Positions 3,603 to 62,757 of a DNA stretch of 64,000 nucleotides are shown piece after piece; positions within the stretch are counted from its first letter, which is position 1, and each line of letters starts with the position of its first letter. The stretch is from an uncultured bacterium (GTDB lineage: Bacteria > Patescibacteriota > Minisyncoccia > Moranbacterales > UBA2206). Under the pieces are notes generated by a model that was not told the DNA's origin, searched no databases, and saw only the letters and a program-made list of their open reading frames with translations. Both the position numbers and the translations under genes were made by a program. The stretch covers positions 8,786 to 72,785 of the forward strand of contig CAIKZD010000009.1 in the NCBI GenBank assembly GCA_903831805.1. Reading direction: 5' to 3'.

Positions 3603-5318
3603 ATGAATTGGAAAATCAAAACGGGGAATGGCCGCGTGAAAAATACTTTAGCGGAAAAATATCATCCGGTGGTGTTGCAACTTTTGGCCGATCGGGGTAT
3701 CAGCGAAGAAGAGGATATTGAAAAATATTTCGGTTTTGACTATGACGAATGTTTGGGAGACCCATTTTCGATATCCGGCATGGCAACGGCCGTGAGCCGG
3801 ATCGAAAAAGCACTGAAAGAGGGGGAGCAGGTGGCGATTTATGGAGATTATGATGCGGACGGCGTGACAGCCACGGCCGTTTTGAAAGAGACACTGACGG
3901 AAGTCGGATTTCCAGAGGTGTTGTGCTATTTTCCGGATCGTCAGACGGAAGGCTACGGCTTGAATGAAACTGCGTTGGAACAGTTGAAAAAACAAGGCGC
4001 CAAACTAATCATCACGGTGGATTGCGGGATAACCAATGTGGCGGAAGTGGAAAAAGCCAAAGCCTTAGGGCTGGAAATTATCATCACCGACCATCACCAT
4101 GCGCCGGCCAAACTGCCGGACGCCGTGGCCCTCATCAATCCGAACATTCCGGACAGCGGATTTGCTTTTAAAAATTTAGCTGGCGTGGGAGTGGCTTTCA
4201 AACTGGCCCAGGCCATCTATGAAAAATTAGCTCCGGAAAAAGTCGAGCAGCTCAAGTGGGCTTTGGACTTGGTGGCCATTGGCACCATTGCCGACTGCGT
4301 GCCACTTTTGGGCGAGAATCGAATCTTGGTGAAGTATGGGCTGATTGTCCTTTCGAAAACCCGCCGGGCGGGCCTCTTGGAAATGTTCCAGGTGGGACGC
4401 ATCGATATTTCAGAAAATAAGGTGCCTAATGCACATACGGTGGCTTTCCAGATCGCGCCACGAATCAATGCCGCCGGGCGCATCGACCATGCCAGTGCGT
4501 CATATAATGTTTTGGTCGGCAAAGATCCAGTGGAGGCGCGCATGCTGGCCTTGGAATTGGAAGACAAGAATCAAAAAAGGCAAAAAATCACCACAGAAAT
4601 TTTTCGCGAAGTGCAAATTCTGGCCAACAATTCTTTTAAGGATAGAAATTTTATTTTTGCTGAAAGTCCGCATTGGCCGATGGGCATTTTGGGGCTGGTG
4701 GCGGGAAAAATCACCGGAGAATTCGGCAAACCGTCTATGGTGTTGGCGCGCAAGCCCGGCATATTTTCCGGCTCGCTCCGCAGCGTGCCGGCCGTCAATC
4801 TGATGGAAATCATCACCCGCTGTTCCAGTCTGGTGGAAAGATTTGGGGGACATTCTCAAGCCGCCGGGGTGAGTGTTTTGCCTGAGAACTTGGAAAAATT
4901 TTGCGCTCAAATGACCGCGGAAGTGGACAAAGAACTCGCCGGCAAAGAAATTGTGGCGTCGCTGGAAATCGACTCTGAAATTTCAGCGGGCGATATCGGT
5001 TGGGAATTGGTGGACGCCCTGAAAAAGATGGAGCCGTTCGGGGAAGGCAATCGGCAGCCGGTTTTTTGCGCGAAAAATTTTGTGGTGGTGGATGTGAAAA
5101 TCGTGGGCAATGGACAAAAACATTTGAAACTGGCTTTGCGAGGGGAAGCTGGCAGCCCGAAGATTTTTGACGCCATTGGATTTTCCCTGGCGGAAAAATT
5201 TCCGGATCTTAAGAATGGTGATAAACTAGACATAGCTTTTAACTTGGAAGATGATGAATGGAACGGCAATCGAAAGATTCAGCTGAAGATAATCGATTTA
5301 AAGTTAGTGGCGGAGTAA
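3603..5318 (+). CDS. recJ: single-stranded-DNA-specific exonuclease RecJ
   Basis: 571 aa. DHH-family motifs (GDYDADGVTATAVL, ITDHHH) and DHHA1-like C-terminal domain. Confidence 0.85.
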   Translation: MNWKIKTGNGRVKNTLAEKYHPVVLQLLADRGISEEEDIEKYFGFDYDECLGDPFSISGMATAVSRIEKALKEGEQVAIYGDYDADGVTATAVLKETLTEVGFPEVLCYFPDRQTEGYGLNETALEQLKKQGAKLIITVDCGITNVAEVEKAKALGLEIIITDHHHAPAKLPDAVALINPNIPDSGFAFKNLAGVGVAFKLAQAIYEKLAPEKVEQLKWALDLVAIGTIADCVPLLGENRILVKYGLIVLSKTRRAGLLEMFQVGRIDISENKVPNAHTVAFQIAPRINAAGRIDHASASYNVLVGKDPVEARMLALELEDKNQKRQKITTEIFREVQILANNSFKDRNFIFAESPHWPMGILGLVAGKITGEFGKPSMVLARKPGIFSGSLRSVPAVNLMEIITRCSSLVERFGGHSQAAGVSVLPENLEKFCAQMTAEVDKELAGKEIVASLEIDSEISAGDIGWELVDALKKMEPFGEGNRQPVFCAKNFVVVDVKIVGNGQKHLKLALRGEAGSPKIFDAIGFSLAEKFPDLKNGDKLDIAFNLEDDEWNGNRKIQLKIIDLKLVAE

Positions 5319-8562: not shown

Positions 8563-9573
8563 ATGTTCAAACAGAAAAAAACGTACGTCATCCTGATTCT
8601 TCTCATAGCCCTTGTCGGGGGTGGTTATTATTTCAAGTCTAAAAAACCGGTAATTGTTTATACTGCGCAAAAAGTGGAGCAAGGAAATTTAGTGCGGACA
8701 GTGGCGGTGACGGGGGAAATCATTGCACCGGTGGAAGCGGACCTGTCTTTCAAATTGAGCGGCCAAGTTGAATCGCTGTTGGTGAATTTGGGCGATCGTG
8801 TCGAAGTGGGCCAAAAAATCGCGACGATTGATAAGGGGACACTGCTCGCGCAACTGGCGCAAGCGTTACAGGAAGTGAACGCGCAAAAACAGGCATTGGT
8901 CAATATGGAAAGGCGCGCTGATGTGTATAATCATTTTCAAAAAGAAGCGCAAATGGCGGAAATTGCCAAAGCCGAGGAGGCGGTCCGAGCTGTCCAAACT
9001 AACATTACTGAAACCACTTTGTATTCGCCCATTGCCGGCATGGTAATCAAGAAAAATGTGGAAGTGGGCGAGACGACCGTGGCCAACGCTGTGACATCCA
9101 ATACGGCAGTGGTGACCATTGCGTCGGATGGTGATTTGGAAACTGAGGTGAATGTGCCCGAATCGGATATCGTAAACGTAAAAATTGGTCAAAAGGCTAA
9201 AGTGTCGCTGGACGCGCTGTCGTCGGATGAAAAATTAGACGCGGCAGTTTTTGAAATCGAGCCGGCTTCCACGGTCATTCAGGATGTGGTGTATTATAAA
9301 GTGAAGCTTAAATTTGTGGCGCCGGATGCGCGCTTGAAAATCGGCATGAGCAGTAATGTGAACATTAATACGGCCGAGAAGGACGGCGTAGTGATGGTGC
9401 CGATGCGGGCGGTGAAGAATGAGAACGGCCAAGATTATGTGGAAATTCTCAATGCGGATGGCAAGACCACGAAAAGAGAAAATATTCAAACCGGGTTGAA
9501 AGGTGACGACGGCCTGATTGAAATAACTGCCGGCTTAAGCGGTGGCGAAAATGTGGTGGTCCTAGCGAGTTAA
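8563..9573 (+). CDS. HlyD/MacA-family periplasmic adaptor subunit
   Basis: N-terminal transmembrane helix, coiled-coil, beta-barrel region. Followed by MacB-type ATPase and permeases. Confidence 0.7.
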   Translation: MFKQKKTYVILILLIALVGGGYYFKSKKPVIVYTAQKVEQGNLVRTVAVTGEIIAPVEADLSFKLSGQVESLLVNLGDRVEVGQKIATIDKGTLLAQLAQALQEVNAQKQALVNMERRADVYNHFQKEAQMAEIAKAEEAVRAVQTNITETTLYSPIAGMVIKKNVEVGETTVANAVTSNTAVVTIASDGDLETEVNVPESDIVNVKIGQKAKVSLDALSSDEKLDAAVFEIEPASTVIQDVVYYKVKLKFVAPDARLKIGMSSNVNINTAEKDGVVMVPMRAVKNENGQDYVEILNADGKTTKRENIQTGLKGDDGLIEITAGLSGGENVVVLAS

Positions 9574-9574
9574 T

Positions 9575-9734
9575 CCTGTCATTCTGAGCGAAGCCTGTAC
9601 TCAGGCGTAGTCGAAGAATCTGCTTTGTATAACCAGTAGTTTTCCTATAAATCGTAAGTCTTGTGGTAACCACGGGCAGATCCTTCGACTGCGTTCGTCG
9701 CCTTGTCGGCGACTCACTCCGCTCAGGATGACAG
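9575..9734 (+). repeat. 160-bp hairpin/MITE-like repeat element, copy 1 (terminal inverted repeats CTGTCATYCTGAGCGRAG; inner inverted repeats AGTCGAAGAATCTGC/GCAGATCCTTCGACT)
   Basis: About 88% identical to 44199..44356. Starts 2 nt after the HlyD stop codon. Confidence 0.8.
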
Positions 9735-9778
9735 CTTTTACTATTTACTGAAGTAACTTTTTTAGCAGGTAAAAAACT

Positions 9779-10504
9779 ATGACGCCTCTTATCCAAGTGC
9801 AAAACATGAGCAAGACTTATGCCTCAGAGGGCGTGGAAACTAAAGCGCTATCCCGGGCTGATTTTCAAGTGGAAAAAGGGGAATTTCTGTCCATTATGGG
9901 GCCGAGTGGCAGTGGAAAATCAACCTTGATGCAAATCTTAGGTTTTTTGGATCATCCGACTGGCGGCCAATATCTATTTGAAGGACGCGATATCGCCGAT
10001 TTTTCGGCGGATGAGTTAGCGAGTACTCGCAACAAGAAAATCGGTTTTGTTTTTCAGTCGTTCAATCTGTTGCCGCGCACGAGTGTTTTTGAAAATGTGG
10101 AATTGCCGCTGCTCTATGATCAACAACCGGATGGCAAGAATTATGACAAAGTGATGGCCGCTCTCCGCTCGGTCGGCATGGAGCATCGGGAAAAATATCT
10201 TTCCAACCAGCTGTCCGGCGGCGAGAAACAGCGTGTGGCCATTGCGCGCGCCTTGGTCAATGATCCGGAACTGATTTTCGCCGATGAGCCGACGGGGAAT
10301 TTGGATTCGCACTCCGGTCTCACCGTGATGAAAATTTTGCAAGGCCTTAACAATTCCGGACACACCGTGATTTTGGTGACGCACGAAACTTACACGGCCG
10401 AACATGCCAAAAGAATAATTTATATCAAAGATGGACAAATTGTGGCGGATGACCCGGTCAAAAATCGTCGCATCGCGGAGGGCGAGACGGAACTGCTCAA
10501 ATAA
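9779..10504 (+). CDS. ABC transporter ATP-binding protein (MacB/LolD type)
   Basis: Walker [10 protein letters not shown], signature [15 protein letters not shown], Walker B. Confidence 0.85.
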
Positions 10505-28161: not shown

Positions 28162-28374
28162 ATGAAAACGATTGTTTTGCATGATTGTCACATTAACTTC
28201 GAAGACGACGTAAAAGACGTCGAGACATATCTCGGGAATCATTTGAACCTGAATGAATTCCAGACGATTTTCAACTACGCACATCTGCACCAGCAAGCCT
28301 ATTTTCAAGATAGGAATGGTCACCACTATCTCGCGGACTACAAAAACGGGGAATATTTTATCGAAAAAATTTAA
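28162..28374 (+). CDS. small hypothetical protein
   Basis: 70-aa ORF directly downstream of the tRNA. Confidence 0.4.
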   Translation: MKTIVLHDCHINFEDDVKDVETYLGNHLNLNEFQTIFNYAHLHQQAYFQDRNGHHYLADYKNGEYFIEKI

Positions 28375-28385
28375 AAAACAAAAAT

Positions 28386-28820
28386 ATGCACTACGTTACC
28401 ACTTTTAAAATTTTCAAGCATAATTTCTGGACCAATGAATGGTCGCGGTTTCTGTATGAAGGAAAATATTATCGCTTCATGGCCAGGGATATTTCAGCGG
28501 TTGAGATTTTGCCAGCTAAATACCAGCGAGTTATTTTTACGATTCCAAGAGTTTGGCTTAAGGAATATGAGAAAGGTGTGTTTATGGCTTGGAAGGAATT
28601 TCCCAAAGCCCTGCAAGCTAAGATGGAAAAATATAATTTAGTGGTGGATGATAAAGAAAAAAAGAAAATATTTACTGCGTTGCAGAAAGAACTCAAAGCC
28701 TATTTTGTGAAAAAAATCACCATTACCAATCGTCAGGCCAAGGTTTTATTGAATCTGCAAACGATGGATATCTCAGCTAGGGAAGCGCATAAAATCCATA
28801 AGAAAATCGGTCTGGAATAA
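28386..28820 (+). CDS. hypothetical protein (paralog A of 31607..32041)
   Basis: About 85% amino-acid identity to the second copy. Confidence 0.6.
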   Translation: MHYVTTFKIFKHNFWTNEWSRFLYEGKYYRFMARDISAVEILPAKYQRVIFTIPRVWLKEYEKGVFMAWKEFPKALQAKMEKYNLVVDDKEKKKIFTALQKELKAYFVKKITITNRQAKVLLNLQTMDISAREAHKIHKKIGLE

Positions 28821-28846
28821 ACTAATTCGTTAAACACACAATCATT

Positions 28847-29014
28847 ATGAAAACATACATCTGTGAAATATGCGGAGATGTGGGAATGGAATTTTTTATA
28901 TCATTTTGTTGTAGTATATTTAGTGGCGCAGTGCTTGACGGATTTTACGAATGTGCTACAATAAATTCAGCTAAAACCACCCGTCCTGACCCGCAAGGGC
29001 ACGGCGGTTTTTAG
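28847..29014 (+). CDS. small ORF (55 aa) starting MKTYICEICGD like rubrerythrin, ending TTRPDPQGHGGF
   Basis: First 38 nt are near-identical to the rubrerythrin start. 3' half overlaps the conserved promoter-terminator tail. Confidence 0.3.
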   Translation: MKTYICEICGDVGMEFFISFCCSIFSGAVLDGFYECATINSAKTTRPDPQGHGGF

Positions 29015-29023
29015 ATTTTTAGT

Positions 29024-29068
29024 ATGGAAAAATTCGATAAAGAACAAAATGTGGCTTTTAAAAAATAA
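29024..29068 (+). pseudogene. remnant of NYN-gene 5' end (MEKFDKEQNVAFKK)
   Basis: Matches the start of the 29270 gene (MEKIEKKQKRVAIY). Part of a tandemly duplicated unit of about 240 bp. Confidence 0.5.
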
Positions 29069-29087
29069 TTAATCAATAACAATCATT

Positions 29088-29252
29088 ATGAAAACATACA
29101 TCTGTGAAATTTGCGGGGATGCGGAAGTGAAATTTTTTATATCATTTCGTGGTAGTATGTTCAGTAGCGCAATTGACGAATTTTCTAGATGTGCTACAAT
29201 AAATTCAGCTAAAACCACCCGTCCTGACCCGCAAGGGCACGGCGGGTTTTAG
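29088..29252 (+). CDS. small ORF (54 aa), second copy of MKTYICEICGD...TTRPDPQGHGGF
   Basis: Frame is kept despite a 3-nt indel relative to copy 1. The last 52 nt are identical to copy 1. Confidence 0.3.
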   Translation: MKTYICEICGDAEVKFFISFRGSMFSSAIDEFSRCATINSAKTTRPDPQGHGGF

Positions 29253-29269
29253 ATTTCAAGTGTTTGAAT

Positions 29270-29845
29270 ATGGAAAAAATCGAGAAAAAACAAAAAAGAG
29301 TCGCGATATATATTGATGGAAGCAATTTTTACTATAAATTGAGGGACTTGGAAGTCCCAAATACAACCTATTTCAATTACGGCGGACTTTCAGAATGGTT
29401 GGCAAGGGATCGTGTTATTATATCGAAGAGATACTATATAGGAGTTGTAAGGGCAAAGGAAAACGATGAAAAAGGACAGATGTTAAGAAAAAATCAACAA
29501 CGGTTGTTTAATCATCTCGGTTCGTCTGTACAGGGATTTATTGTGAAACAAGGATATCTTATGAAAAATGATGGCGTGTATCACGAAAAGGGTGTGGACG
29601 TTAAAATAGCAGTTGATTTATTGGTTGGTGCTTATGAAAATATGTATGATACTGCGATTCTTATTTCTTCTGATACTGACTTGATTCCGGCTATTCAAAA
29701 AATTAAACATTTGGGCAAGGGGGTTGAGTATATAGGTTTTTCACATAAGCCAAGTTTGGCATTGCAAAAGTACGCTTCACTGACTAGGTTGATGATGAAA
29801 GAAGAGTTGGAAGATTTTGTTTCAAAAACGATTTATAAAAAGTAG
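29270..29845 (+). CDS. NYN-domain (LabA-like, PIN-like) predicted ribonuclease
   Basis: AIYIDGSNFYY...KGVDVKIAVDLL...ILISSDTDLIPAIQ. Confidence 0.7.
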   Translation: MEKIEKKQKRVAIYIDGSNFYYKLRDLEVPNTTYFNYGGLSEWLARDRVIISKRYYIGVVRAKENDEKGQMLRKNQQRLFNHLGSSVQGFIVKQGYLMKNDGVYHEKGVDVKIAVDLLVGAYENMYDTAILISSDTDLIPAIQKIKHLGKGVEYIGFSHKPSLALQKYASLTRLMMKEELEDFVSKTIYKK

Positions 29846-29865
29846 CAGTATTATTTATTAGCATT

Positions 29866-30009
29866 ATGGACAAATACCAATCCGCTTGGGAAAAATTTCA
29901 GAAAAAAATGGAAGTTTTGCGTAAAAAGCAGAAAGAAATTTTGGCGCGGATTTTTAATAAACTGGATGAGCAGAAACTCGAAGCTATCCGTAAAAAATTG
30001 CAAAAATAG
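29866..30009 (+). CDS. small coiled-coil ORF (47 aa)
   Basis: ATG 29866 to TAG 30009. The stop abuts the ATG of the next gene (possible translational coupling). Below the track cutoff. Confidence 0.3.
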   Translation: MDKYQSAWEKFQKKMEVLRKKQKEILARIFNKLDEQKLEAIRKKLQK

Positions 30010-31587
30010 ATGAGCAAAGAACAGATACAAAGTAAAAGTGAATCAGCCGTAGAGAAAATAGGGACAAAAATTTCCCCGGAAAAAACTGATGCAGAAAAAG
30101 CAGCAGAAATGAAGGTCGAGTCTGAAAAAGAAGTGGCTGGTTTTGAAAGTATAGAAAAAACTGAAATGGCGCGGGCTGAACAGCTTGTAGCTGGAGATGA
30201 ATCGCATAGTATGCATATTGATGCTAATGATATAGCGGAAATGGAGGAATCTAATCAAGAGGTGGAAGCGGCACAGGTAGAATTGGCGAATGAAATTGGC
30301 AGTAATGAAATTAGCGATGATCAAAAGGAAAAATTCGGCAACTTCATTAAGGATAAAAAAGAGTTTTATAGGGAAAATAATATGGATGTATTGAAAGAAG
30401 CGAAATATGGCAGGGATGGTGCATTAAAGGATGCAGAGTATAATAAAAAACATTTTGAGGAATATACTATAAAAGTGGAGGAGCTTAGATCGGAAATAGA
30501 ACATAAAAAATCGAGCATCATAACTAGAGTATTGGAGTTTAGGAAAATAAAAGAGCTTGAAAAAAAACTTGGTGCCCAAAAAGAACTTCAAGGAACTTAT
30601 GAAAGATGGACAGCTCAGAAAAAAGAACTGGCAGACGCTTATGACTATCTGATAGCAGAAGAAACAAAACTTTCAGCTATAATGGAGGAGGCTCACAAGG
30701 AAAATGCTGAGTGGGATGAAAATAAGAGGCTGGAGTTTATTAAAGAAGAAGACAGGAGAGATGTTTCCAAATTAGCAAAAGAACACGGAGTGTTTTTTGT
30801 CCATAATATTGTCGTGGCTGATTGGAAGCCAAGGGTCAATAATAGGGCTATTGACACAAAAAGCCTAAATTTCAACGATCAACTAGATATTATTAGGGGC
30901 TTAGATCCTACGCTTGCAGTATCTACCTTGTCACCTGATTCAAAGAATAAAACTTTCGGCAGGGCCTCTCGGGGTATATTATTTTCAGGTGGACGGATTA
31001 TTGGCGGGGATGAGAGTGATGCTGGCACCGTGGCCAATGGATTAAAAGATAGGAATATAGCGGAGCATCATAAATCAACTGAGGCAATCAGCGAGGCCAT
31101 TGAGCGTCCATCAAAAGGAAAAAAAGACAGCGAGTCTTACAACGAATTGGTTATGGAGAATCCTGAAATCGCGGGCGTATATTTCAAATGGAATGACAAC
31201 TATCCATCATTAAAGGATGGAGAGGACACATTTTTACGTAATAATGAGGTTGCTGGCTATGGAGAATGGGATGGGTGGTGGAAAGATACCGAAGAAATGA
31301 TGCAGTCTGGAGCTCCTGTTTTTGTGGTTGAAAGTGATAATAATATTCGTTTGGTGTACGATATAAATTTAAAAGAAAGGTCTTTTAAAGTAACACCGCA
31401 ATACAAGCCGGAAACCATGACGGATATGCCGGGAATATATCAACAGCACTTAGGCAAGGAGGAAAAAAGAAAGGCTGCGATGAGAGTTTTTGATAAAGCC
31501 ATAGGACTAATTCCCGAAGATGAGCAAAATAAATATATGCCAGACGGAACAGAGAAGGATGCGCAAAATTTACATAATATACATTAG
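30010..31587 (+). CDS. large acidic hypothetical protein with N-terminal coiled coil
   Basis: 525-aa ORF, no recognisable motif. Confidence 0.55.
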   Translation: MSKEQIQSKSESAVEKIGTKISPEKTDAEKAAEMKVESEKEVAGFESIEKTEMARAEQLVAGDESHSMHIDANDIAEMEESNQEVEAAQVELANEIGSNEISDDQKEKFGNFIKDKKEFYRENNMDVLKEAKYGRDGALKDAEYNKKHFEEYTIKVEELRSEIEHKKSSIITRVLEFRKIKELEKKLGAQKELQGTYERWTAQKKELADAYDYLIAEETKLSAIMEEAHKENAEWDENKRLEFIKEEDRRDVSKLAKEHGVFFVHNIVVADWKPRVNNRAIDTKSLNFNDQLDIIRGLDPTLAVSTLSPDSKNKTFGRASRGILFSGGRIIGGDESDAGTVANGLKDRNIAEHHKSTEAISEAIERPSKGKKDSESYNELVMENPEIAGVYFKWNDNYPSLKDGEDTFLRNNEVAGYGEWDGWWKDTEEMMQSGAPVFVVESDNNIRLVYDINLKERSFKVTPQYKPETMTDMPGIYQQHLGKEEKRKAAMRVFDKAIGLIPEDEQNKYMPDGTEKDAQNLHNIH

Positions 31588-31606
31588 TAATCAAAAAAAC
31601 AAAAGC

Positions 31607-32041
31607 ATGCACTACATTACCACTTTCAAAATTTTCAAGCATAATTTCTGGACCAATGAATGGTCAAGATTTCTTTATGAAGGAAAATACTATCGCTTCA
31701 CGGTCAAGGATATTTCAGCGGTTGAGATTTCGCCAGCTAAATATAAACGAGTTATTTTCACGATCCCAAGAGTTTGGCTCAAGGAATATGAAAAAGGTGT
31801 TTTTCTGGCGTGGAAAGAATTTCCCAAGACTCTTCAAGTCAAGATGAAAAAATATGATCTGGTGGTGGATGATAAAGAAAAAAAGAAAATGTTTTCCATC
31901 CTGCAAAAAGAACTTAAAGCCTATTTTGTTAAAAAAAACACCATCACCAACAGCCAAGCTAGGGCTTTATTGAAACTGCAGACGATGGATATCTCAGCTA
32001 AAGAAGCGCATAAAATCCATAAGAAAATCGGTCTGGAATAA
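31607..32041 (+). CDS. hypothetical protein (paralog B of 28386..28820)
   Basis: Start at MHYITTFK (the track ORF starts upstream). Confidence 0.6.
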   Translation: MHYITTFKIFKHNFWTNEWSRFLYEGKYYRFTVKDISAVEISPAKYKRVIFTIPRVWLKEYEKGVFLAWKEFPKTLQVKMKKYDLVVDDKEKKKMFSILQKELKAYFVKKNTITNSQARALLKLQTMDISAKEAHKIHKKIGLE

Positions 32042-32067
32042 ACTAATTTGTTAAACATATAACCATT

Positions 32068-32586
32068 ATGAAAACATATATCTGTGAAATTTGTGGGGAT
32101 GCCTATTTGGGCGAAGAGCGGCCGAGCGAGTGTCCGTTTTGCGGGTCGAGGCAGGCTTTTATCAAAGACGGTAAGGTCGCTAGTCCGATCACGCTTGCGC
32201 CGGAAGAATTGTCGGAAATTTCCAAGAAAAATTTGGAAAAAACTTTGGAACTGGAAATCCACGCCAACGCGGTCTATTTGTGCATGGCGGAAAAAACTAA
32301 GACGTATGAAATCAAAGCGATGTATAAGCGCTTGGCCAAGGTGGAATTGGAACACGCTAATATCGCGTGCAAATTGATGCAGAGTTATTTGCCGCAAGTG
32401 GGTGAAGGCTTTTGCGCTGAGGAAGATGCGTCCAATTTTGCTGAAACTATCAAACTGGAGGAGAATGCCACGGCTCTATATGTCCAATTTGCCAGAGAAG
32501 CGACAGAAAAGAACGTGAAAATTTTCTTCACCGCGCTTTCGCAAGTGGAAGCGGATCATATTAAGTTGATTAAGAATTATTTATAA
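32068..32586 (+). CDS. rubrerythrin-family protein with N-terminal rubredoxin-like CxxC...CxxC
   Basis: CEICGD...CPFCGS followed by a ferritin-like E...ExxH diiron domain. Confidence 0.75.
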   Translation: MKTYICEICGDAYLGEERPSECPFCGSRQAFIKDGKVASPITLAPEELSEISKKNLEKTLELEIHANAVYLCMAEKTKTYEIKAMYKRLAKVELEHANIACKLMQSYLPQVGEGFCAEEDASNFAETIKLEENATALYVQFAREATEKNVKIFFTALSQVEADHIKLIKNYL

Positions 32587-35778: not shown

Positions 35779-36441
35779 ATGAAATATACTTTCAAAGATT
35801 ACCGTAATGCAGGAATGGTTTTGTTTTGTTTAATTCTGCTCGCTTTTGTGGCTGGCGAAATAGACAAGTCTTATCAGAATGTTTTTGGAAGAGAAAAGGT
35901 AAGCGGATTAATCCAAGACGTAAAGAGGTTCCGCAATGTGCCTGGTTACGACCCAATCACTCTTGATTACATTGTCAATAAACTTGAAGGCGCAGTCAAT
36001 TCCAGGGTGATTACCTGGAAAAGATTGGGCACAGACCATGCCGAACTCAAAAGCTTGGCAAGGCAAAACAGAGTGAAAGATCTTAAAGTAACCCTGCAGA
36101 GGTTCCGAAGTATACCAGGCTACGGCCAAAGCACTAGTAACTACATCATTGATGGATTTGAAAATGCAGTCAAGTCTGATGTGACCACCTGGAAAGAATT
36201 GGAGACAAGTCAGGCTGAGCTCGAAAAATTAGCAAGACAAAATAGAGTGAAGGATCTCAAAATAACCCTAGGGATGTTCCGCAGCATACCCGGTTACGAC
36301 TCAGAGAGTATTCGTTTCGTCATCAATGAACTTAGAGATGCGGTCGACTCCAATGTGACCACCTGGGAAGAATTAGGAACTGACCAAGCTGAGCTCGAGA
36401 GCCTGGCAAAACAAAATAAAGCGAAAGAAGGAGAAATGTAA
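35779..36441 (+). CDS. secreted or membrane-anchored protein with three tandem ~48-aa repeats
   Basis: N-terminal hydrophobic helix. Repeats of FRSIPGY..x..TW(K/E)EL(G/E)T(D/S)QAELExLA(R/K)QN(R/K)VKDLK. Confidence 0.6.
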   Translation: MKYTFKDYRNAGMVLFCLILLAFVAGEIDKSYQNVFGREKVSGLIQDVKRFRNVPGYDPITLDYIVNKLEGAVNSRVITWKRLGTDHAELKSLARQNRVKDLKVTLQRFRSIPGYGQSTSNYIIDGFENAVKSDVTTWKELETSQAELEKLARQNRVKDLKITLGMFRSIPGYDSESIRFVINELRDAVDSNVTTWEELGTDQAELESLAKQNKAKEGEM

Positions 36442-36637
36442 TTTACATTCTCTATTAGAATGCTATCGAGCAATCTCGCTCACCCGCCCCGATCAATTAA
36501 CTTTGGTTGGGGTGTGTTTTTTTATACAAAAATTTTACAAATATTTGAGCTATTGACAAAAGTCATTCGCTACGATAAATTTCTAGCAGTACCTAACCCC
36601 ATAATGCTGTTAACCTTATCACAGGAGGAACTATCTA

Positions 36638-41740: not shown

Positions 41741-42510
41741 AAAAAATAGAGCGGACTAGCGGACTGTTCGTCGTAACCGACGGACCGTTCGCTTGGCTTA
41801 TCGTAACCGCGAACGGTCCGCTTATCGGAGTACCTCAAGCGAACAGTCCGCGGAAGTTAGTGAATATGAGTGTTGCAAAATATAAAATAAAAGATTCTTA
41901 TCCAGGTATGGTTTGCCATGTTTATAATAGGGGAGTGAATAAGGAAAAAATATTTAGAGATGAAAATGATTATGTTTTTTATTTGAAAAAAGTCAGGGAA
42001 TATAAGGAAAAATATGAGATAGATGTAATTTGCTATAGCTTTTTGGATAATCATTACCATTACATCCTAGAACAACTAGGAGAGGAGCCAATAACAAATT
42101 TTATGCGCTCGGTTCATACGAGCTATGGACAATATTTCAATAAAAAATATAATAGAGTAGGTCCGCTTTTTCAAGGGAGATTCAAACAGGCAGTACTGAA
42201 TGACAATAATTTTATTTATCTATCCGCTTATGTGAACGCCAATGCTCAAATTCATGGAATTATTGATAAGGCTGAAGAGCATAGGTGGTGCAGTTACCCT
42301 GATTATCTGGGATTGAGAAATGGGACCTTGTGCAATAAAGCAAGAATACTAGATCAGTTTAAGGATATATTGGAGTATAGAGGATTTGTTGAAGAAAATG
42401 TGAAGGAGTTTAAAATTAAAAAAGAAGCAGATAAATTCATACTAGAGGATTGAGTGAATATAACTTAGCGAACGGTCCGCTGATTACAGCGAACAGTCCG
42501 CTAAATTTAG
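41741..42510 (+). mobile_element. IS200/REPtron-like unit: HUH Y1 transposase flanked by inverted REP-like palindrome clusters (GCGAACNGTCCGC / GCGGACNGTTCGC)
   Basis: Left cluster 41746-41853 (4 units, nested inverted) and right cluster 42465-42504 (2 units) in opposite orientation. About 770 bp. Confidence 0.65.
41866..42453 (+). CDS. tnpA: IS200/IS605-family TnpA / REP-associated tyrosine transposase (RAYT)-like
   Basis: HUH motif DNHYHYIL, about 195 aa, flanked by REP-like palindromes. Confidence 0.7.
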   Translation: MSVAKYKIKDSYPGMVCHVYNRGVNKEKIFRDENDYVFYLKKVREYKEKYEIDVICYSFLDNHYHYILEQLGEEPITNFMRSVHTSYGQYFNKKYNRVGPLFQGRFKQAVLNDNNFIYLSAYVNANAQIHGIIDKAEEHRWCSYPDYLGLRNGTLCNKARILDQFKDILEYRGFVEENVKEFKIKKEADKFILED

Positions 42511-43696: not shown

Positions 43697-44197
43697 ATGA
43701 ATCTGAATTCTATTCTTGCTCAATTAGGAATCTCAGCCAGCATGACCCAAGATGTTACGTTACTCTTGGCGCTTCTTCTGGTCAGTTTCATCTTCGGAAT
43801 GTTTGTCGGCCGCACTAGGCTCATTACGGTGGTGATCAACACTTATGTGGCGTTTGCCATTCTGGCCGTCATTCCCAAGACTTATCTGACGGATTATAAT
43901 ACGGCGCTTCTGACTTTCTTCGCTCTCTTGGTAGTGCTGACTATTTTTGGCAAAAAGATTTTTGAAATTTCCATTTCCGGCTCCGGCCCGGACTTTCTCT
44001 GGCGGGTGTTCGGGGTGAGTTTTTTGGAAGTGCTTTTGCTGGTCAGTATCGCCATCTCTCTGATGCCCAAAAAAGTCGCCTTGGTCTATGTCTCCAAAAC
44101 GGCTTATGACTATCTGGCCGCACCCAACTTCCAACTGTTGTGGATGGTTTTGCCGCTCATCGGTGTGCTGCTTATCCATAAGAAGCTGAACCGTTAG
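43697..44197 (+). CDS. hypothetical membrane protein
   Basis: 166 aa, 4-5 hydrophobic helices. Confidence 0.5.
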   Translation: MNLNSILAQLGISASMTQDVTLLLALLLVSFIFGMFVGRTRLITVVINTYVAFAILAVIPKTYLTDYNTALLTFFALLVVLTIFGKKIFEISISGSGPDFLWRVFGVSFLEVLLLVSIAISLMPKKVALVYVSKTAYDYLAAPNFQLLWMVLPLIGVLLIHKKLNR

Positions 44198-44198
44198 T

Positions 44199-44356
44199 TG
44201 TCATTCTGAGCGAAGCCTGTACTCGGGCGCAGTCGAAGAATCTGCTTTGTGTAACCACACTAGTTTTCCTATAAATCACAAGACTTGAGGTAATCACGGG
44301 TAGATCCTTCGACTGCGTTCCTCCGCTAGCGCGTCGTCACTCCGCTCAGGATGACA
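44199..44356 (+). repeat. 160-bp hairpin/MITE-like repeat element, copy 2
   Basis: About 88% identical to 9575..9734. Starts 2 nt after the upstream stop codon. Confidence 0.8.
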
Positions 44357-44367
44357 ATATCCTTGTA

Positions 44368-44395
44368 TTGACTAAAATTGCGAGAGTGATATAAT
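44368..44395 (+). promoter_or_regulatory. sigma70-type promoter TTGACT-16-TATAAT driving tRNA genes
   Basis: Near-consensus hexamers 28 nt upstream of the tRNA-like fragment. Confidence 0.6.
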
Positions 44396-44423
44396 GGCAA
44401 AGTTGTTCCATTCATTTAAATAT

Positions 44424-44473
44424 GCGCCTATAGCTCAGTTGGTAGATCCGCCAGCTGGCGGACTTATAGGCGG
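44424..44473 (+). pseudogene. 50-nt tRNA-Lys-derived pseudo-tRNA or mini-tRNA-like element
   Basis: First 24 nt identical to tRNA-Lys (acceptor + D arm). Then a ccgcc-agct-ggcgg hairpin. The 3' end tataggcg pairs with the 5' cgcctata. No anticodon or T arm. Confidence 0.5.
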
Positions 44474-44506
44474 GGATATCATATTTAAGAAATAAAAATT
44501 TACAAT

Positions 44507-44579
44507 GCGCCTATAGCTCAGTTGGTAGAGCAGTTGCCTTTTAAGCAAACGGTCCCTGGTTCGAGTCCAGGTGGGCGCA
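44507..44579 (+). tRNA. tRNA-Lys (anticodon TTT)
   Basis: Cloverleaf: acceptor gcgccta/tgggcgc, D arm gctc-agttggta-gagc, anticodon loop cuUUUaa, T arm cctgg-ttcgagt-ccagg. Confidence 0.75.
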
Positions 44580-44663
44580 CAAATAAAATTTTGAATTTTT
44601 AAAACAGTCTGGAGGCTGTTTTTTGTTTCAATTTGGCTTTTGTTTTACAATCAATTTAACTAG

Positions 44664-44770
44664 CTTCCGCGGACTGTTCGCTTGAGGTACTCCGACAAGT
44701 GGACCGTTCGCGTTTACTTAAAGCTAAGCGAACGGTCCGTCGATTACGACGAACAGTCCGCTCTATTTTT
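44664..44770 (-). repeat. REP/BIME-like palindrome cluster, inverted copy of 41741-41860 (about 90% identity as reverse complement)
   Basis: Reverse complement of cluster 1 aligns along about 115 bp, including linker sequences. Confidence 0.75.
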
Positions 44771-60929: not shown

Positions 60930-61448
60930 TTGAAAACTATGCAATGGATTGCGATCAGTGGAAGTTGGAGAAAATTTGACGCGCAAGTGGAGAAAGACGT
61001 GCGAGAGGTTGCGCGTGAGATTATTTCGCGCGGGAATGGAATCGTGTCCGGCGGCGCCCTGGGCGTGGACTATTTCGCGACAGACGAAGCGATGAAACTC
61101 AATCCGGCGGCGAATCAGATCAAGATTTTTTTGCCCGGGACACTGGAACTTTATGCGGCACATTGTGATGAGCGGATCGAGCGTGGCGATTTTACGCGCG
61201 AACAAATTGATGAGCTTATCGGCCAGTTGATAAAATTGAAAGAAGCAAATCCAAATGCGCTGATTGAAGACCGCGAGTCCTCAACTATTGATGGTGCGGC
61301 TTATGAAAAAAGAAGAGCAGCTATCATTGTGGCAGCGGACGCCGTGGAGGCTTTTCAAGTGAATGGGAGCGTTGGCACGCAAGATACGATCGATAAAGCA
61401 TTGGCGCGGGGGCTTGAGGTGAATAAGAGGGAATATACTATAGAGTAA
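60930..61448 (+). CDS. SLOG/DprA-like Rossmann-fold protein
   Basis: GIVSGGALGVDYFA glycine-rich motif. GAGGAGG Shine-Dalgarno. Confidence 0.45.
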   Translation: MKTMQWIAISGSWRKFDAQVEKDVREVAREIISRGNGIVSGGALGVDYFATDEAMKLNPAANQIKIFLPGTLELYAAHCDERIERGDFTREQIDELIGQLIKLKEANPNALIEDRESSTIDGAAYEKRRAAIIVAADAVEAFQVNGSVGTQDTIDKALARGLEVNKREYTIE

Positions 61449-61500
61449 ATATGGCATTTGCATCGTTAAGCTTTTACACTAGATTCCTGCCTACGCAGGA

Positions 61501-62757
61501 ATGACACATTCTATGCCAAAACAAAAACTAAAATTTCCGGACGGTTTTTTGTGGGGGGCGGCGACTTCGTCTTATCAGATTGAAGGCGATAATGTTAATT
61601 CGGATTGGTGGGAGTGGGAGCAGGCGGGGAAAACCAAAGATATTTCGGGCGAGGCGTGTGATTATTGGCACCGCTACGCAAGTGATCATGATTTACTTGA
61701 AGAGTTGGGCGTGGGACTTTTCCGCTGTTCCATCGAGTGGTCCAGAGTTGAACCAAGAGACGGTGAATTTTCGGATGAGGCTATCGGACATTATCGCCAA
61801 ATTTTTCAGGATTTGAAAAGAAGAAATATTAAAACCCAAGTGACGTTGTGGTGGTGGACCAGCCCGATTTGGTTCCAGAAAAAATATGGCTGGCACAATA
61901 AAAAATCTCCTGAAATTTTTGCGCGTTATGCTGAAAAAATGACCCAAGAGTTGGGCGATCTTATCGACATCTTCACCACATTCAACGAGCCGATGGTGCC
62001 GCTCGGACAAGGCTTTTTGGGCGGCATCTATCCACCCGGTTTCAAAAATCCGTACAAGTTCTGGCGGGCGGTAAACAATGTGGTGGCGGCTCATCGCGAA
62101 GCCTATAAGATTATCCATAAGATTAAGCCTGGCGCACCAGTCGGCATCACCTATCTTTACAATTGGTACGAATCGGAAGGGTTTGGTTTGTTATTAAATA
62201 CTATCAATCGCCTAGCGCAGTGGTACCGGATAGATTTTTTAGGTAATAAGATAAAAGGCTTTCAGGATTATGCCGGCGTGAATTATTACCGTTTGGGGAA
62301 AATAAAATTTAGTTGGAATAATTTTAAACTGGATTCTGCCAATCAAACCTATTTCGGTTTTACGATTGAAGAGGATAGGGATAATGTGATGAAATGGATC
62401 TCTTATCCAGAAGGGCTGTATAAAGTTTTAAAACAAGCCAGCGCCAAATTTCAAGTTCCGATATATATCACAGAAAACGGCGGACCGACCAGGAGCGGTT
62501 TGGAAGATAATGATCGAATAGAATATATCCGGCAACACTTAAGCTTTGTGCATCAAGCGATTTCAGAGGGAGTTCCGGTGCGCGGCTATAATTTCTGGTC
62601 GCTCATGGATAACTTGGAATGGCTATATGGCTACGAGCCGAAATTTGGCCTCATCGAAATGGACTACGAAACCCTGGAGCGCCATCCCAGGAAGAGTTTC
62701 TATGAATACGCTAAAATTTGCCAGAATAATGCAGTGGAAATTGATGTTAAAAACTAA
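61501..62757 (+). CDS. GH1-family beta-glucosidase
   Basis: FPDGFLWGAATSSYQIEG N-terminal signature, NEP acid/base, ITENG nucleophile. Confidence 0.85.
   Translation: MTHSMPKQKLKFPDGFLWGAATSSYQIEGDNVNSDWWEWEQAGKTKDISGEACDYWHRYASDHDLLEELGVGLFRCSIEWSRVEPRDGEFSDEAIGHYRQIFQDLKRRNIKTQVTLWWWTSPIWFQKKYGWHNKKSPEIFARYAEKMTQELGDLIDIFTTFNEPMVPLGQGFLGGIYPPGFKNPYKFWRAVNNVVAAHREAYKIIHKIKPGAPVGITYLYNWYESEGFGLLLNTINRLAQWYRIDFLGNKIKGFQDYAGVNYYRLGKIKFSWNNFKLDSANQTYFGFTIEEDRDNVMKWISYPEGLYKVLKQASAKFQVPIYITENGGPTRSGLEDNDRIEYIRQHLSFVHQAISEGVPVRGYNFWSLMDNLEWLYGYEPKFGLIEMDYETLERHPRKSFYEYAKICQNNAVEIDVKN

Follow-up and report, generated by a model that had tools for sequence, protein, structure and literature searches.

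The 64-kb window analysed here (64,000 nucleotides of contig CAIKZD010000009.1, from an uncultured bacterium of the Moranbacterales, Patescibacteriota) contains two hairpin-forming elements of about 157 bp in identical orientation, located at 9577-9733 (copy 1) and 44199-44356 (copy 2). Each element is probably a doublet of a repetitive extragenic palindrome (REP)-type unit, inverted with heads facing outward around a spacer of 58-60 nt, non-autonomous and moved in trans. The repeated entity is this short self-folding unit and not the 160-bp element. Judged by its sequence, the unit appears to be a member of the CGTC/TGTC-tagged REP superfamily or else a variant close to it.

The original prediction for this DNA described two hairpin elements of roughly 160 bp, 88% identical and in one orientation, and MAFFT alignment of the elements with short flanks bore this out. 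Copy 1 is bounded by TGTC at 9577 and GACA at 9733. The outer arms of the elements, TGTCATTCTGAGCG and CGCTCAGGATGACA, form 14 bp including one T.G, and the inner arms, GTCGAAGAATC and GATCCTTCGAC, are paired with one A.C. These arms had been described as terminal and inner inverted repeats. The pairing holds, but not in the sense of terminal repeats bounding a miniature inverted-repeat transposable element (MITE), as the arms are halves of a forward unit facing halves of an inverted unit. The arm 16-mer GTCATYCTGAGCGRAG has exactly four exact matches in the window, corresponding to both arms of both copies, and with up to three mismatches allowed it yields seven matches where 1.2 are expected, a number attained in 0 of 100 shuffles. 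Folded as single strands, both copies form a long hairpin with side hairpins, with energies of -75.8 (copy 1) and -69.3 kcal/mol (copy 2) and z-scores of -8.6 and -7.7 compared with shuffled sequences. The long hairpin of copy 1 is about twice as stable as its parts folded apart, both as RNA (-72.5 vs -37.5 kcal/mol) and as DNA (-34.6 vs -16.9 kcal/mol). Across the window, covariance model R1 identified exactly four units (E = 2e-9 to 3e-6) and one marginal match (Table 1).

Table 1. Repeat units, spacers and a simple relative in the 64-kb window.
Feature	Position	Strand	Description
Copy 1, heads-out doublet, 157 bp	9577..9733	+	between HlyD/MFP adaptor stop and ABC ATPase gene
Copy 1, 5' unit	9577..9620	+	cmsearch R1 50.5 bits, E=2.3e-9; x:x' stem forms when folded alone
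Copy 1, spacer, 58 nt	9621..9678	.	ends complementary (TGCTTTG...CGGGCA), lengthening the long hairpin
Copy 1, 3' unit, inverted	9679..9733	-	x=ATCCT/AGGAT; apical hairpin GTCGCC...GGCGAC; cmsearch R1 36.9 bits, E=2.7e-6
Copy 2, heads-out doublet, 158 bp	44199..44356	+	between 166-aa ORF stop and tRNA-Lys promoter
Copy 2, 5' unit	44199..44242	+	x=ATTCT; apical hairpin CCTGTACTCGGG; cmsearch R1 49.2 bits, E=4.6e-9
Copy 2, spacer, 60 nt	44243..44302	.	differs from the copy 1 spacer by 5 substitutions and a 2-nt indel
Copy 2, 3' unit, inverted	44303..44356	-	x=ATCCT/AGGAT; different apical hairpin (CGCTAGCG); cmsearch R1 39.1 bits, E=8.9e-7
Simple relative, TGTC-ATTCCTGC-GTAG-GCAGGAAT-CTA	61479..61508	-	marginal R1 match, E=0.24

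Units follow a fixed order: the head (T/C)GTC, an arm x of 5 nt that is commonly ATTCT, then GAGCG, either RAG alone or RAG followed by a hairpin and GNAG, then TCGA, the complementary arm x' and C. The 5' unit of copy 1, for example, reads TGTC, x=ATTCT, GAGCG, AAG, the apical hairpin CCTGTACTCAGG, GTAG, TCGA, x'=AGAAT and C. Of 224 distinct units, 213 (95%) have a YGTC head, with T before GTC in 180 and C in 33. Nearly all units have ATNNN as arm x; the gap-free alignment A2, made up of 39 units, shows A-U at column 7 in all 39 and U-A at column 8 in 38. The invariant C that follows x' is succeeded mostly by TC, TT, CC, TA or CG, resulting in a tail that is C-rich and not CCA. Units in pairs are 36-60 nt long and the smallest found among the loci measure 26 nt, e.g. 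GTCATCCCGAGCGAAGTCGAGGGATC. Their apical part ranges from 3 to about 50 nt or more, the commonest units bearing the mini-hairpin GCGNAGC and others carrying unrelated perfect hairpins. Units are seen solo, in tandem arrays and as inverted pairs. Inverted pairs are heads-out in 51 cases and heads-in in 6, with unrelated spacers of 6-179 nt. Heterodimers make up 49 of the 51 heads-out doublets, 32 of them combining ATTCT with ATCCT as in both window copies, and the long hairpin therefore has mismatches (T.G, A.C) while each unit stays perfect. Among individual arrangements, one locus (L029, 494-637) carries three solo units head-to-tail with a 56-nt period, and a phage contig (L010) carries seven doublets in 14 kb, where flanking sequence lengthens the palindrome (…CGCACC|TGTC…GACA|TGCG…).

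Base-pairing within each unit is conserved while the sequence of its stem and mini-hairpin changes. In the 3' inverted units, whose pentamers were left unconstrained by the search pattern, the two pentamers change jointly, giving eight alternative compensated stems: ATCCT/AGGAT, ATCCC/GGGAT, ATTCC/GGAAT, ATGTT/AACAT, ATGTC/GACAT, ATGCT/AGCAT, ATTTC/GAAAT and ATCTT/AAGAT. With no complementarity filter applied, perfect self-complementarity is seen in 47 of 91 non-consensus units, compared with 10.8 (maximum 20) when x' is shuffled among units. In alignment A2, for which helix 1 was pre-filtered at no more than one mismatch and the mini-hairpin helix was not pre-filtered, double changes occur at 5 of 8 pairs in 23 cells, which none of 500 shuffles equalled, and true partners pair in 99.4% of cases vs 25-51% for slid partners. 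The mini-hairpin helix likewise changes from GC-GNA-GC to GT-GNA-AC, C-G being exchanged for U-A and G-C for A-U. When the two window copies are compared, where compensatory substitutions had been suggested as a check, no double-sided changes are found; one-sided changes compatible with pairing are present (U-A to U.G, U.G to C-G, G-C to G.U), and one apical hairpin has been swapped wholesale. Selection maintains each unit's own hairpin. GNA triloops on 2-bp stems, such as d(GCGAAGC), are classic, very stable DNA mini-hairpins and not a favoured RNA motif; mini-hairpins of this kind, such as GCGAAGC, would therefore fit a single-stranded DNA intermediate.

The unit is widely dispersed. Searching viral contigs and one-genome-per-species contigs with the pattern TCTGAGCGRAG-N8-30-GTCGAAGRATC returned 22 loci in viral or phage contigs and at least 120 loci in the one-genome-per-species contigs, covering at least 14 phyla, and exact unit-core matches overall amount to more than 140 loci in bacterial genomes and phage contigs. 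The scenario of only two copies arising from one local duplication, named in the original prediction as its possible refutation, is thus contradicted. Taxa were taken from record names, most records being metagenome-assembled genomes (MAGs). The matches listed include Bacillota (Oscillospiraceae, Lachnospiraceae, Ruminococcus), Bacteroidota (Bacteroidales, Chryseobacterium, Hymenobacter), Chloroflexota, Acidobacteriota, Verrucomicrobiota, Fibrobacterota, Ignavibacteriota, Latescibacterota, Actinomycetota, Pseudomonadota, Deinococcota, Abditibacteriota, Melainabacteria and Patescibacteria. Fibrobacter succinogenes and Agathobacter rectalis are among the named species that carry the repeat. Copies can be dense, with several within 8-14 kb in the phage contig L010 and in the Moranbacteria MAG L102, where R1 places several doublets within 8 kb. 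Copy-rich phage contigs such as L010 are plausible vehicles between phyla. A cultured isolate also carries the repeat: the complete plasmid CP014769 of Hymenobacter psoromatis has a perfect, unannotated CGTC-headed doublet at 195717-195832 (locus L269, 1498-1613), a homodimer with x = ATGCT in both units that separates atpD from atpC in an F-type ATPase operon.

Searches of established collections returned little. The whole element had no BLAST match among plasmids and cultured phages, and the 38-nt unit consensus matched at full length only in two Hymenobacter plasmids, with two partial phage matches (61-68% of the query) and no match in any E. coli genome. The lack of an E. coli copy and the near absence from cultured-phage and plasmid collections probably explain why the family has no name. 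Literature searches by sequence string gave only chance primer matches, and keyword searches gave nothing specific on later CGTC REPs or on REPs in Patescibacteria. A metagenome scan with the spacer 17-mer TAGTTTTCCTATAAATC, which is too short for this purpose, produced 119 matches, all by chance and without the element. A Logan contig from the window's own organism (L023) stops 121 nt past the MFP stop codon, inside copy 1, as expected of a repeat that breaks short-read assemblies.

Both copies lie directly behind stop codons. Copy 1 begins 3 nt past the TAA (9571-9573) of an HlyD/MFP adaptor gene (8563-9573) and copy 2 begins 1 nt past the TAG (44195-44197) of a 166-aa open reading frame (ORF; 43697-44197) downstream of dnaJ, so the claim that both start 2 nt after a stop is right about the closeness and wrong about the distance. 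The upstream genes are unrelated, as had been stated; the 166-aa product has no Pfam match. Copy 1 is situated inside an efflux operon, since the MFP adaptor gene lies upstream and an ABC ATPase gene (9779-10504), starting 45 nt downstream of the element, is followed by two MacB-type permease genes. On the 3' side of copy 2 lies a strong sigma-70-like promoter, TTGACT-16-TATAAT (44368-44395), followed by a tRNA-Lys gene.

Relatives lack both insertions. In syntenic relatives whose MFP proteins are 73-77% identical, the junction between the MFP and ABC genes is 8 nt long and without the element (L145/L146 and L147/L148), or is filled with unrelated sequence of 97 nt (L149, 10970-11066) or 481 nt (L144, 11012-11492). 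For copy 2, no element is present in L271, a relative with an 86% identical 166-aa ORF, where 2 nt separate the stop codon from the equivalent tRNA promoter. Model R1 detected no unit in the syntenic DNA of relatives, about 135 kb in all. As the orthologous sites are empty for both copies, both are insertions specific to the window lineage, and even between close relatives the distribution of the family is patchy. The filled junctions of L144 and L149 bear a different short repeat (CAGAACCACTGA...GATTACACTGAA), in L144 inside about 480 nt of non-coding DNA, and in this group of Patescibacteria the MFP-ABC junction appears to be a hot spot at which small insertions accumulate.

A dedicated structured RNA, such as a cis-regulatory element, a ribozyme or a protein-binding RNA, would account for the core and the covariation by RNA function and treat repetition as secondary. 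The strong covariation in unit stem and mini-hairpin, the invariance of the core across phyla, the very low folding z-scores and the sense-strand placement of both window copies directly behind stop codons are all in line with it. However, apart from rRNA and tRNAs, Rfam has no match at gathering scores over the whole window and none at E<=10 for 9500-9800, and the GNA-triloop mini-hairpins are of a type classic for DNA and not favoured in RNA. Further, every doublet has one antisense unit that is conserved to an equal degree, solo units between co-directional genes occur in both senses (28 vs 16, p=0.10), and, by a crude gene model, every type of intergenic region holds copies, including those between divergent genes. 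Tandem arrays, phage-borne clusters and copies inside protein genes also speak against an RNA gene. In L081 (5100-5245) a whole doublet is inserted in frame into RecG, adding between helicase motifs 53 aa that a homologous RecG lacks, and in L036 (about 4080-4190) a copy lies in frame inside mfd. The elements thus behave as a DNA-level repeat that is tolerated inside ORFs, and we consider a dedicated RNA, which the original prediction had listed as an option, to be improbable; what survives of that option is that the hairpin would still form in mRNA. In two additional loci (L058 and L117), recG and an element share one 8-kb stretch. With 4 recG- or mfd-associated loci out of 120 among the matches listed and a rough expectation of about 0.8, enrichment of copies in or near these genes is only suggestive.

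The elements could alternatively be classical MITEs, i.e. deletion derivatives of an insertion sequence (IS) with a DDE transposase, known by terminal inverted repeats with TG...CA ends. Ends of the form TGTCA...TGACA that make up a 14-17-bp inverted repeat, a typical size of about 160 bp and the patchiness among close relatives fit such an origin. Target-site duplications, which had been proposed as a test, were looked for in the 51 doublets, and none of at least 4 bp was found; matches of 3 bp occur three times vs 0.8 expected, and 2-3-bp matches overall are near chance. The supposed terminal repeat is moreover half of a unit that is also found solo and in tandem, and the doublet spacers are unrelated. 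All-against-all clustering of 1,960 neighbouring ORFs from 143 loci revealed no recurrent gene and no recurrent transposase, the sole recurrent neighbours being phage synteny blocks, recG/mfd and paralogues of an ABC solute-binding protein, the last found in element loci on four contigs of the Chloroflexi MAG NC_groundwater_1425 (two in L030). With neither a target-site duplication nor a parent IS found, a DDE-type MITE is very unlikely. A non-autonomous mobile element is still the closest of the originally proposed identities, as a REP doublet that also exists as solo and tandem units and not with the anatomy of a MITE bounded by terminal repeats. Insertion leaves no target duplication and needs no gene encoded in cis.

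Least credible is a locally evolved, immobile intrinsic terminator or operon insulator, as also suggested originally: the position right behind stop codons, the very stable hairpin and the separation of a protein operon from a tRNA promoter by copy 2 would suit it, but a terminator scan detected neither a U-tract nor a terminator-like site at either copy (3' flanks GCTTTTACTA and ATATCCTTGT), copy 1 lies within an operon whose relatives have an 8-nt junction, and the same sequence recurs in hundreds of unrelated contexts and across phyla, including between divergent genes and inside genes.

More specific identities were discarded on sequence grounds. A hammerhead core needs CUGANGA where the element reads CUGAGCG, the 3-nt bulge of a kink-turn is absent, the GGA of a CsrA site is lost in covarying variants, the RYYYAAC/GTTRRRY cores of an integron attC site are lacking, and the likeness to a tRNA T-arm or D-arm comes down to 5-6 nt in common.

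Among described repeats, the CGTC-tagged REP superfamily, which takes in Neisseria dRS3 and Rickettsia RPE-4/RPE-6, comes closest (Di Nocera, De Gregorio & Rocco 2013, PMC3733652). Its members have an unpaired tetranucleotide head CGTC (variants TGTC, CCTC), an 8-9-bp stem that opens with A-T followed by T-A, a 4-5-nt loop and a short unpaired 3-nt tail with the consensus CCA (PMC3733652). They mostly form inverted dimers able to fold into one large stem-loop, heterodimers being frequent, HH dimers predominant and TT dimers rare; they are found in 5 phyla, mostly in Alphaproteobacteria, and have no dedicated transposase (PMC3733652). Copies are mainly intergenic; many of the intragenic ones lie in replication and repair genes, and both CGTC and GTAG REPs have been found inside repair genes (PMC3733652).

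The window unit resembles this superfamily in its YGTC head and AT-first stem, and in both cases there are dispersed inverted dimers, heterodimers, copies in repair genes and no associated transposase gene. The two differ in that units of the large elements consist of 5 Watson-Crick pairs, the invariant GAGCG/TCGA core and a variable apical hairpin, and in that the core of the window unit is present in at least 14 phyla compared with the 5 published. The window dimers are heads-out, an arrangement that may or may not correspond to the rare TT class as published. The published stem and loop geometry is found only in the simple unit at 61479-61508 and in L102 at 501-570, the latter a doublet of simple REPs that shares its ATTCTGA start with the complex unit. 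The unit at 61479-61508, located between the plus-strand ORFs 60930-61448 and 61501-62757 (52-nt gap), has an 8-bp stem beginning with AT, a 4-nt loop and a 3-nt tail; by these features it is a canonical simple TGTC-tagged REP and ties the large elements to the published CGTC/TGTC class. Since the geometry of the complex unit does not fit and its exact sequence was not found in the accessible text and supplements of PMC3733652, the complex unit would represent a variant within or next to the superfamily but outside its four described families.

Doublets are also the hallmark of REPINs, which consist of two inverted REPs and a spacer that form a long hairpin, the doublet being thought of as the replication unit (Bertels & Rainey 2011, PMC3116915). 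REPINs are non-autonomous, lack target-site duplications and leave singletons as remnants; their heads are GTAG (GT[AG]G), their inheritance in Proteobacteria is mostly vertical, and they have a cognate single-copy RAYT flanked by REPs (PMC3116915). The window elements share the inverted unit pair with spacer, the long hairpin and the lack of a target-site duplication. However, the head of their family is YGTC, and no RAYT flanked by units was found in the window and 143 loci. Without a GTAG head or such a RAYT, they do not constitute a strict REPIN/RAYT system. Rickettsia palindromic elements, reportedly palindromes of about 100-150 bp inserted in frame in protein genes and confined to Rickettsia and Wolbachia, are similar with regard to the in-frame copies in recG and mfd, but have other sequences and that restricted range.

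In the REP doublet reading, a trans-acting enzyme that recognizes the invariant head and core would copy the units as single-stranded DNA hairpins, and by analogy it may be a RAYT/IS200-type HUH-like enzyme. Orientation relative to GC skew, in which single-stranded DNA transposons typically show a lagging-strand bias, was not significant (p=0.24 and 0.34). Several points weigh against this reading. No mobilizing enzyme emerged from the clustering of neighbouring genes or from a HUH/Y1-motif scan of the window and 143 loci; the scan returned nothing in the window and two Y1/RAYT-like ORFs elsewhere (L099 and L137), both several kb from the units and not bounded by them. Presence and absence were compared between species at 73-86% amino-acid identity, a comparison from which transposition is deduced, and there is no base-exact empty site because the flanks differ by a few extra nucleotides. 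The count for the home genome rests on 64 kb, with two doublets and one simple REP. The deviation of the unit from the published 8-9-bp stem and 4-5-nt loop also counts here, and the effects on RNA considered below are drawn by analogy. REP-type repeats are usually lineage-specific. The near-invariance of the core across phyla is unlike ordinary REPs in this respect, and could reflect a function other than selfish spread, either as RNA or as a site bound by protein.

A broader hypothesis is that the unit forms part of a pan-bacterial REP system, in which the invariant head and the GAGCG...TCGA core would be the recognition site of a widely distributed enzyme that processes single-stranded DNA, and the copies in and beside recG and mfd would reflect the place or mode of insertion, e.g. 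at stalled forks or R-loops. We regard this as rather unlikely, though it would, if true, reveal a new mobilization route for "orphan" CGTC-type REPs, for which no mobilizing enzyme has become known since their description in 2013. An almost unchanged 12-nt core with a covarying stem, spread across phyla and phage contigs with no known enzyme, is unusual. It provides a sharp sequence handle which, together with the covariance model, could be used for phylogenetic profiling of gene families that co-occur with the repeat, and the Hymenobacter psoromatis plasmid doublet offers a convenient experimental system. The units also matter for annotation hygiene, as they yield spurious ORFs and break metagenome assemblies.

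Because both copies are on the sense strand and 1-3 nt past a stop codon, the respective mRNAs would carry a hairpin of about -70 kcal/mol. In E. coli, REP/BIME hairpins within operons are said to lie just past stop codons, e.g. between malE and malF, to shield upstream mRNA from 3' exonucleases and, when within about 15 nt of the stop codon, to be able to stall terminating ribosomes. The window elements are alike in being hairpins right behind stop codons, with copy 1 in an ABC efflux operon and with the ABC-gene loci of NC_groundwater_1425 as a further parallel; the sequences are unrelated and a role of the window family in mRNA is suggested by analogy. Decay of REP-containing mRNAs requires RNase R/PNPase (PMC12320835). 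By the same analogy, the hairpin would block 3'-to-5' exonucleases and may hinder terminating ribosomes. In copy 1 it could shift the expression ratio of the adaptor relative to the ABC ATPase and permeases, and in copy 2 it could close the dnaJ-ORF166 transcript ahead of the tRNA promoter. Any such effect would be a by-product that the cell may or may not use. For the window itself, the point of interest is two sites in this tiny genome of the Patescibacteria at which a hairpin of this stability directly follows a stop codon, one site being midway through an efflux operon. The repeat family is the more novel finding, the window being of modest novelty.

Other repeats are present in the window. 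Downstream of copy 2, the first 25 nt of the tRNA-Lys gene (44507-44580), ATGCGCCTATAGCTCAGTTGGTAGA, are present twice, 83 nt apart (44422-44529), and the 58 nt between the two occurrences contain a perfect palindrome, TCCGCCAGCTGGCGGA, followed by CTTATAGGCG, a sequence complementary to the 5' end of the tRNA. In the relative L271, a single uninterrupted tRNA directly follows the equivalent promoter; an insertion or duplication of 83 nt in the window lineage has therefore placed a truncated tRNA-like hairpin between promoter and real tRNA. A 50-nt direct repeat (42459-42508 and 44719-44768, 82% identical) with two GCGAAC(G/A)GTCCGC motifs is placed just upstream of dnaJ and of a BNR/sortilin-like gene. 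In this region the window is about 150 nt longer than its relatives and has more inverted copies of the motif, which may be an operator or a separate small repeat family. Finally, a 300-nt segment is duplicated within 28368-32102 (88% identity, 3.2 kb apart), recurring modules of about 90 nt comprise the start of a small ORF (MKTYICEICGD...) and a terminator-like hairpin, and three 174-nt tandem repeats occupy 35924-36445.

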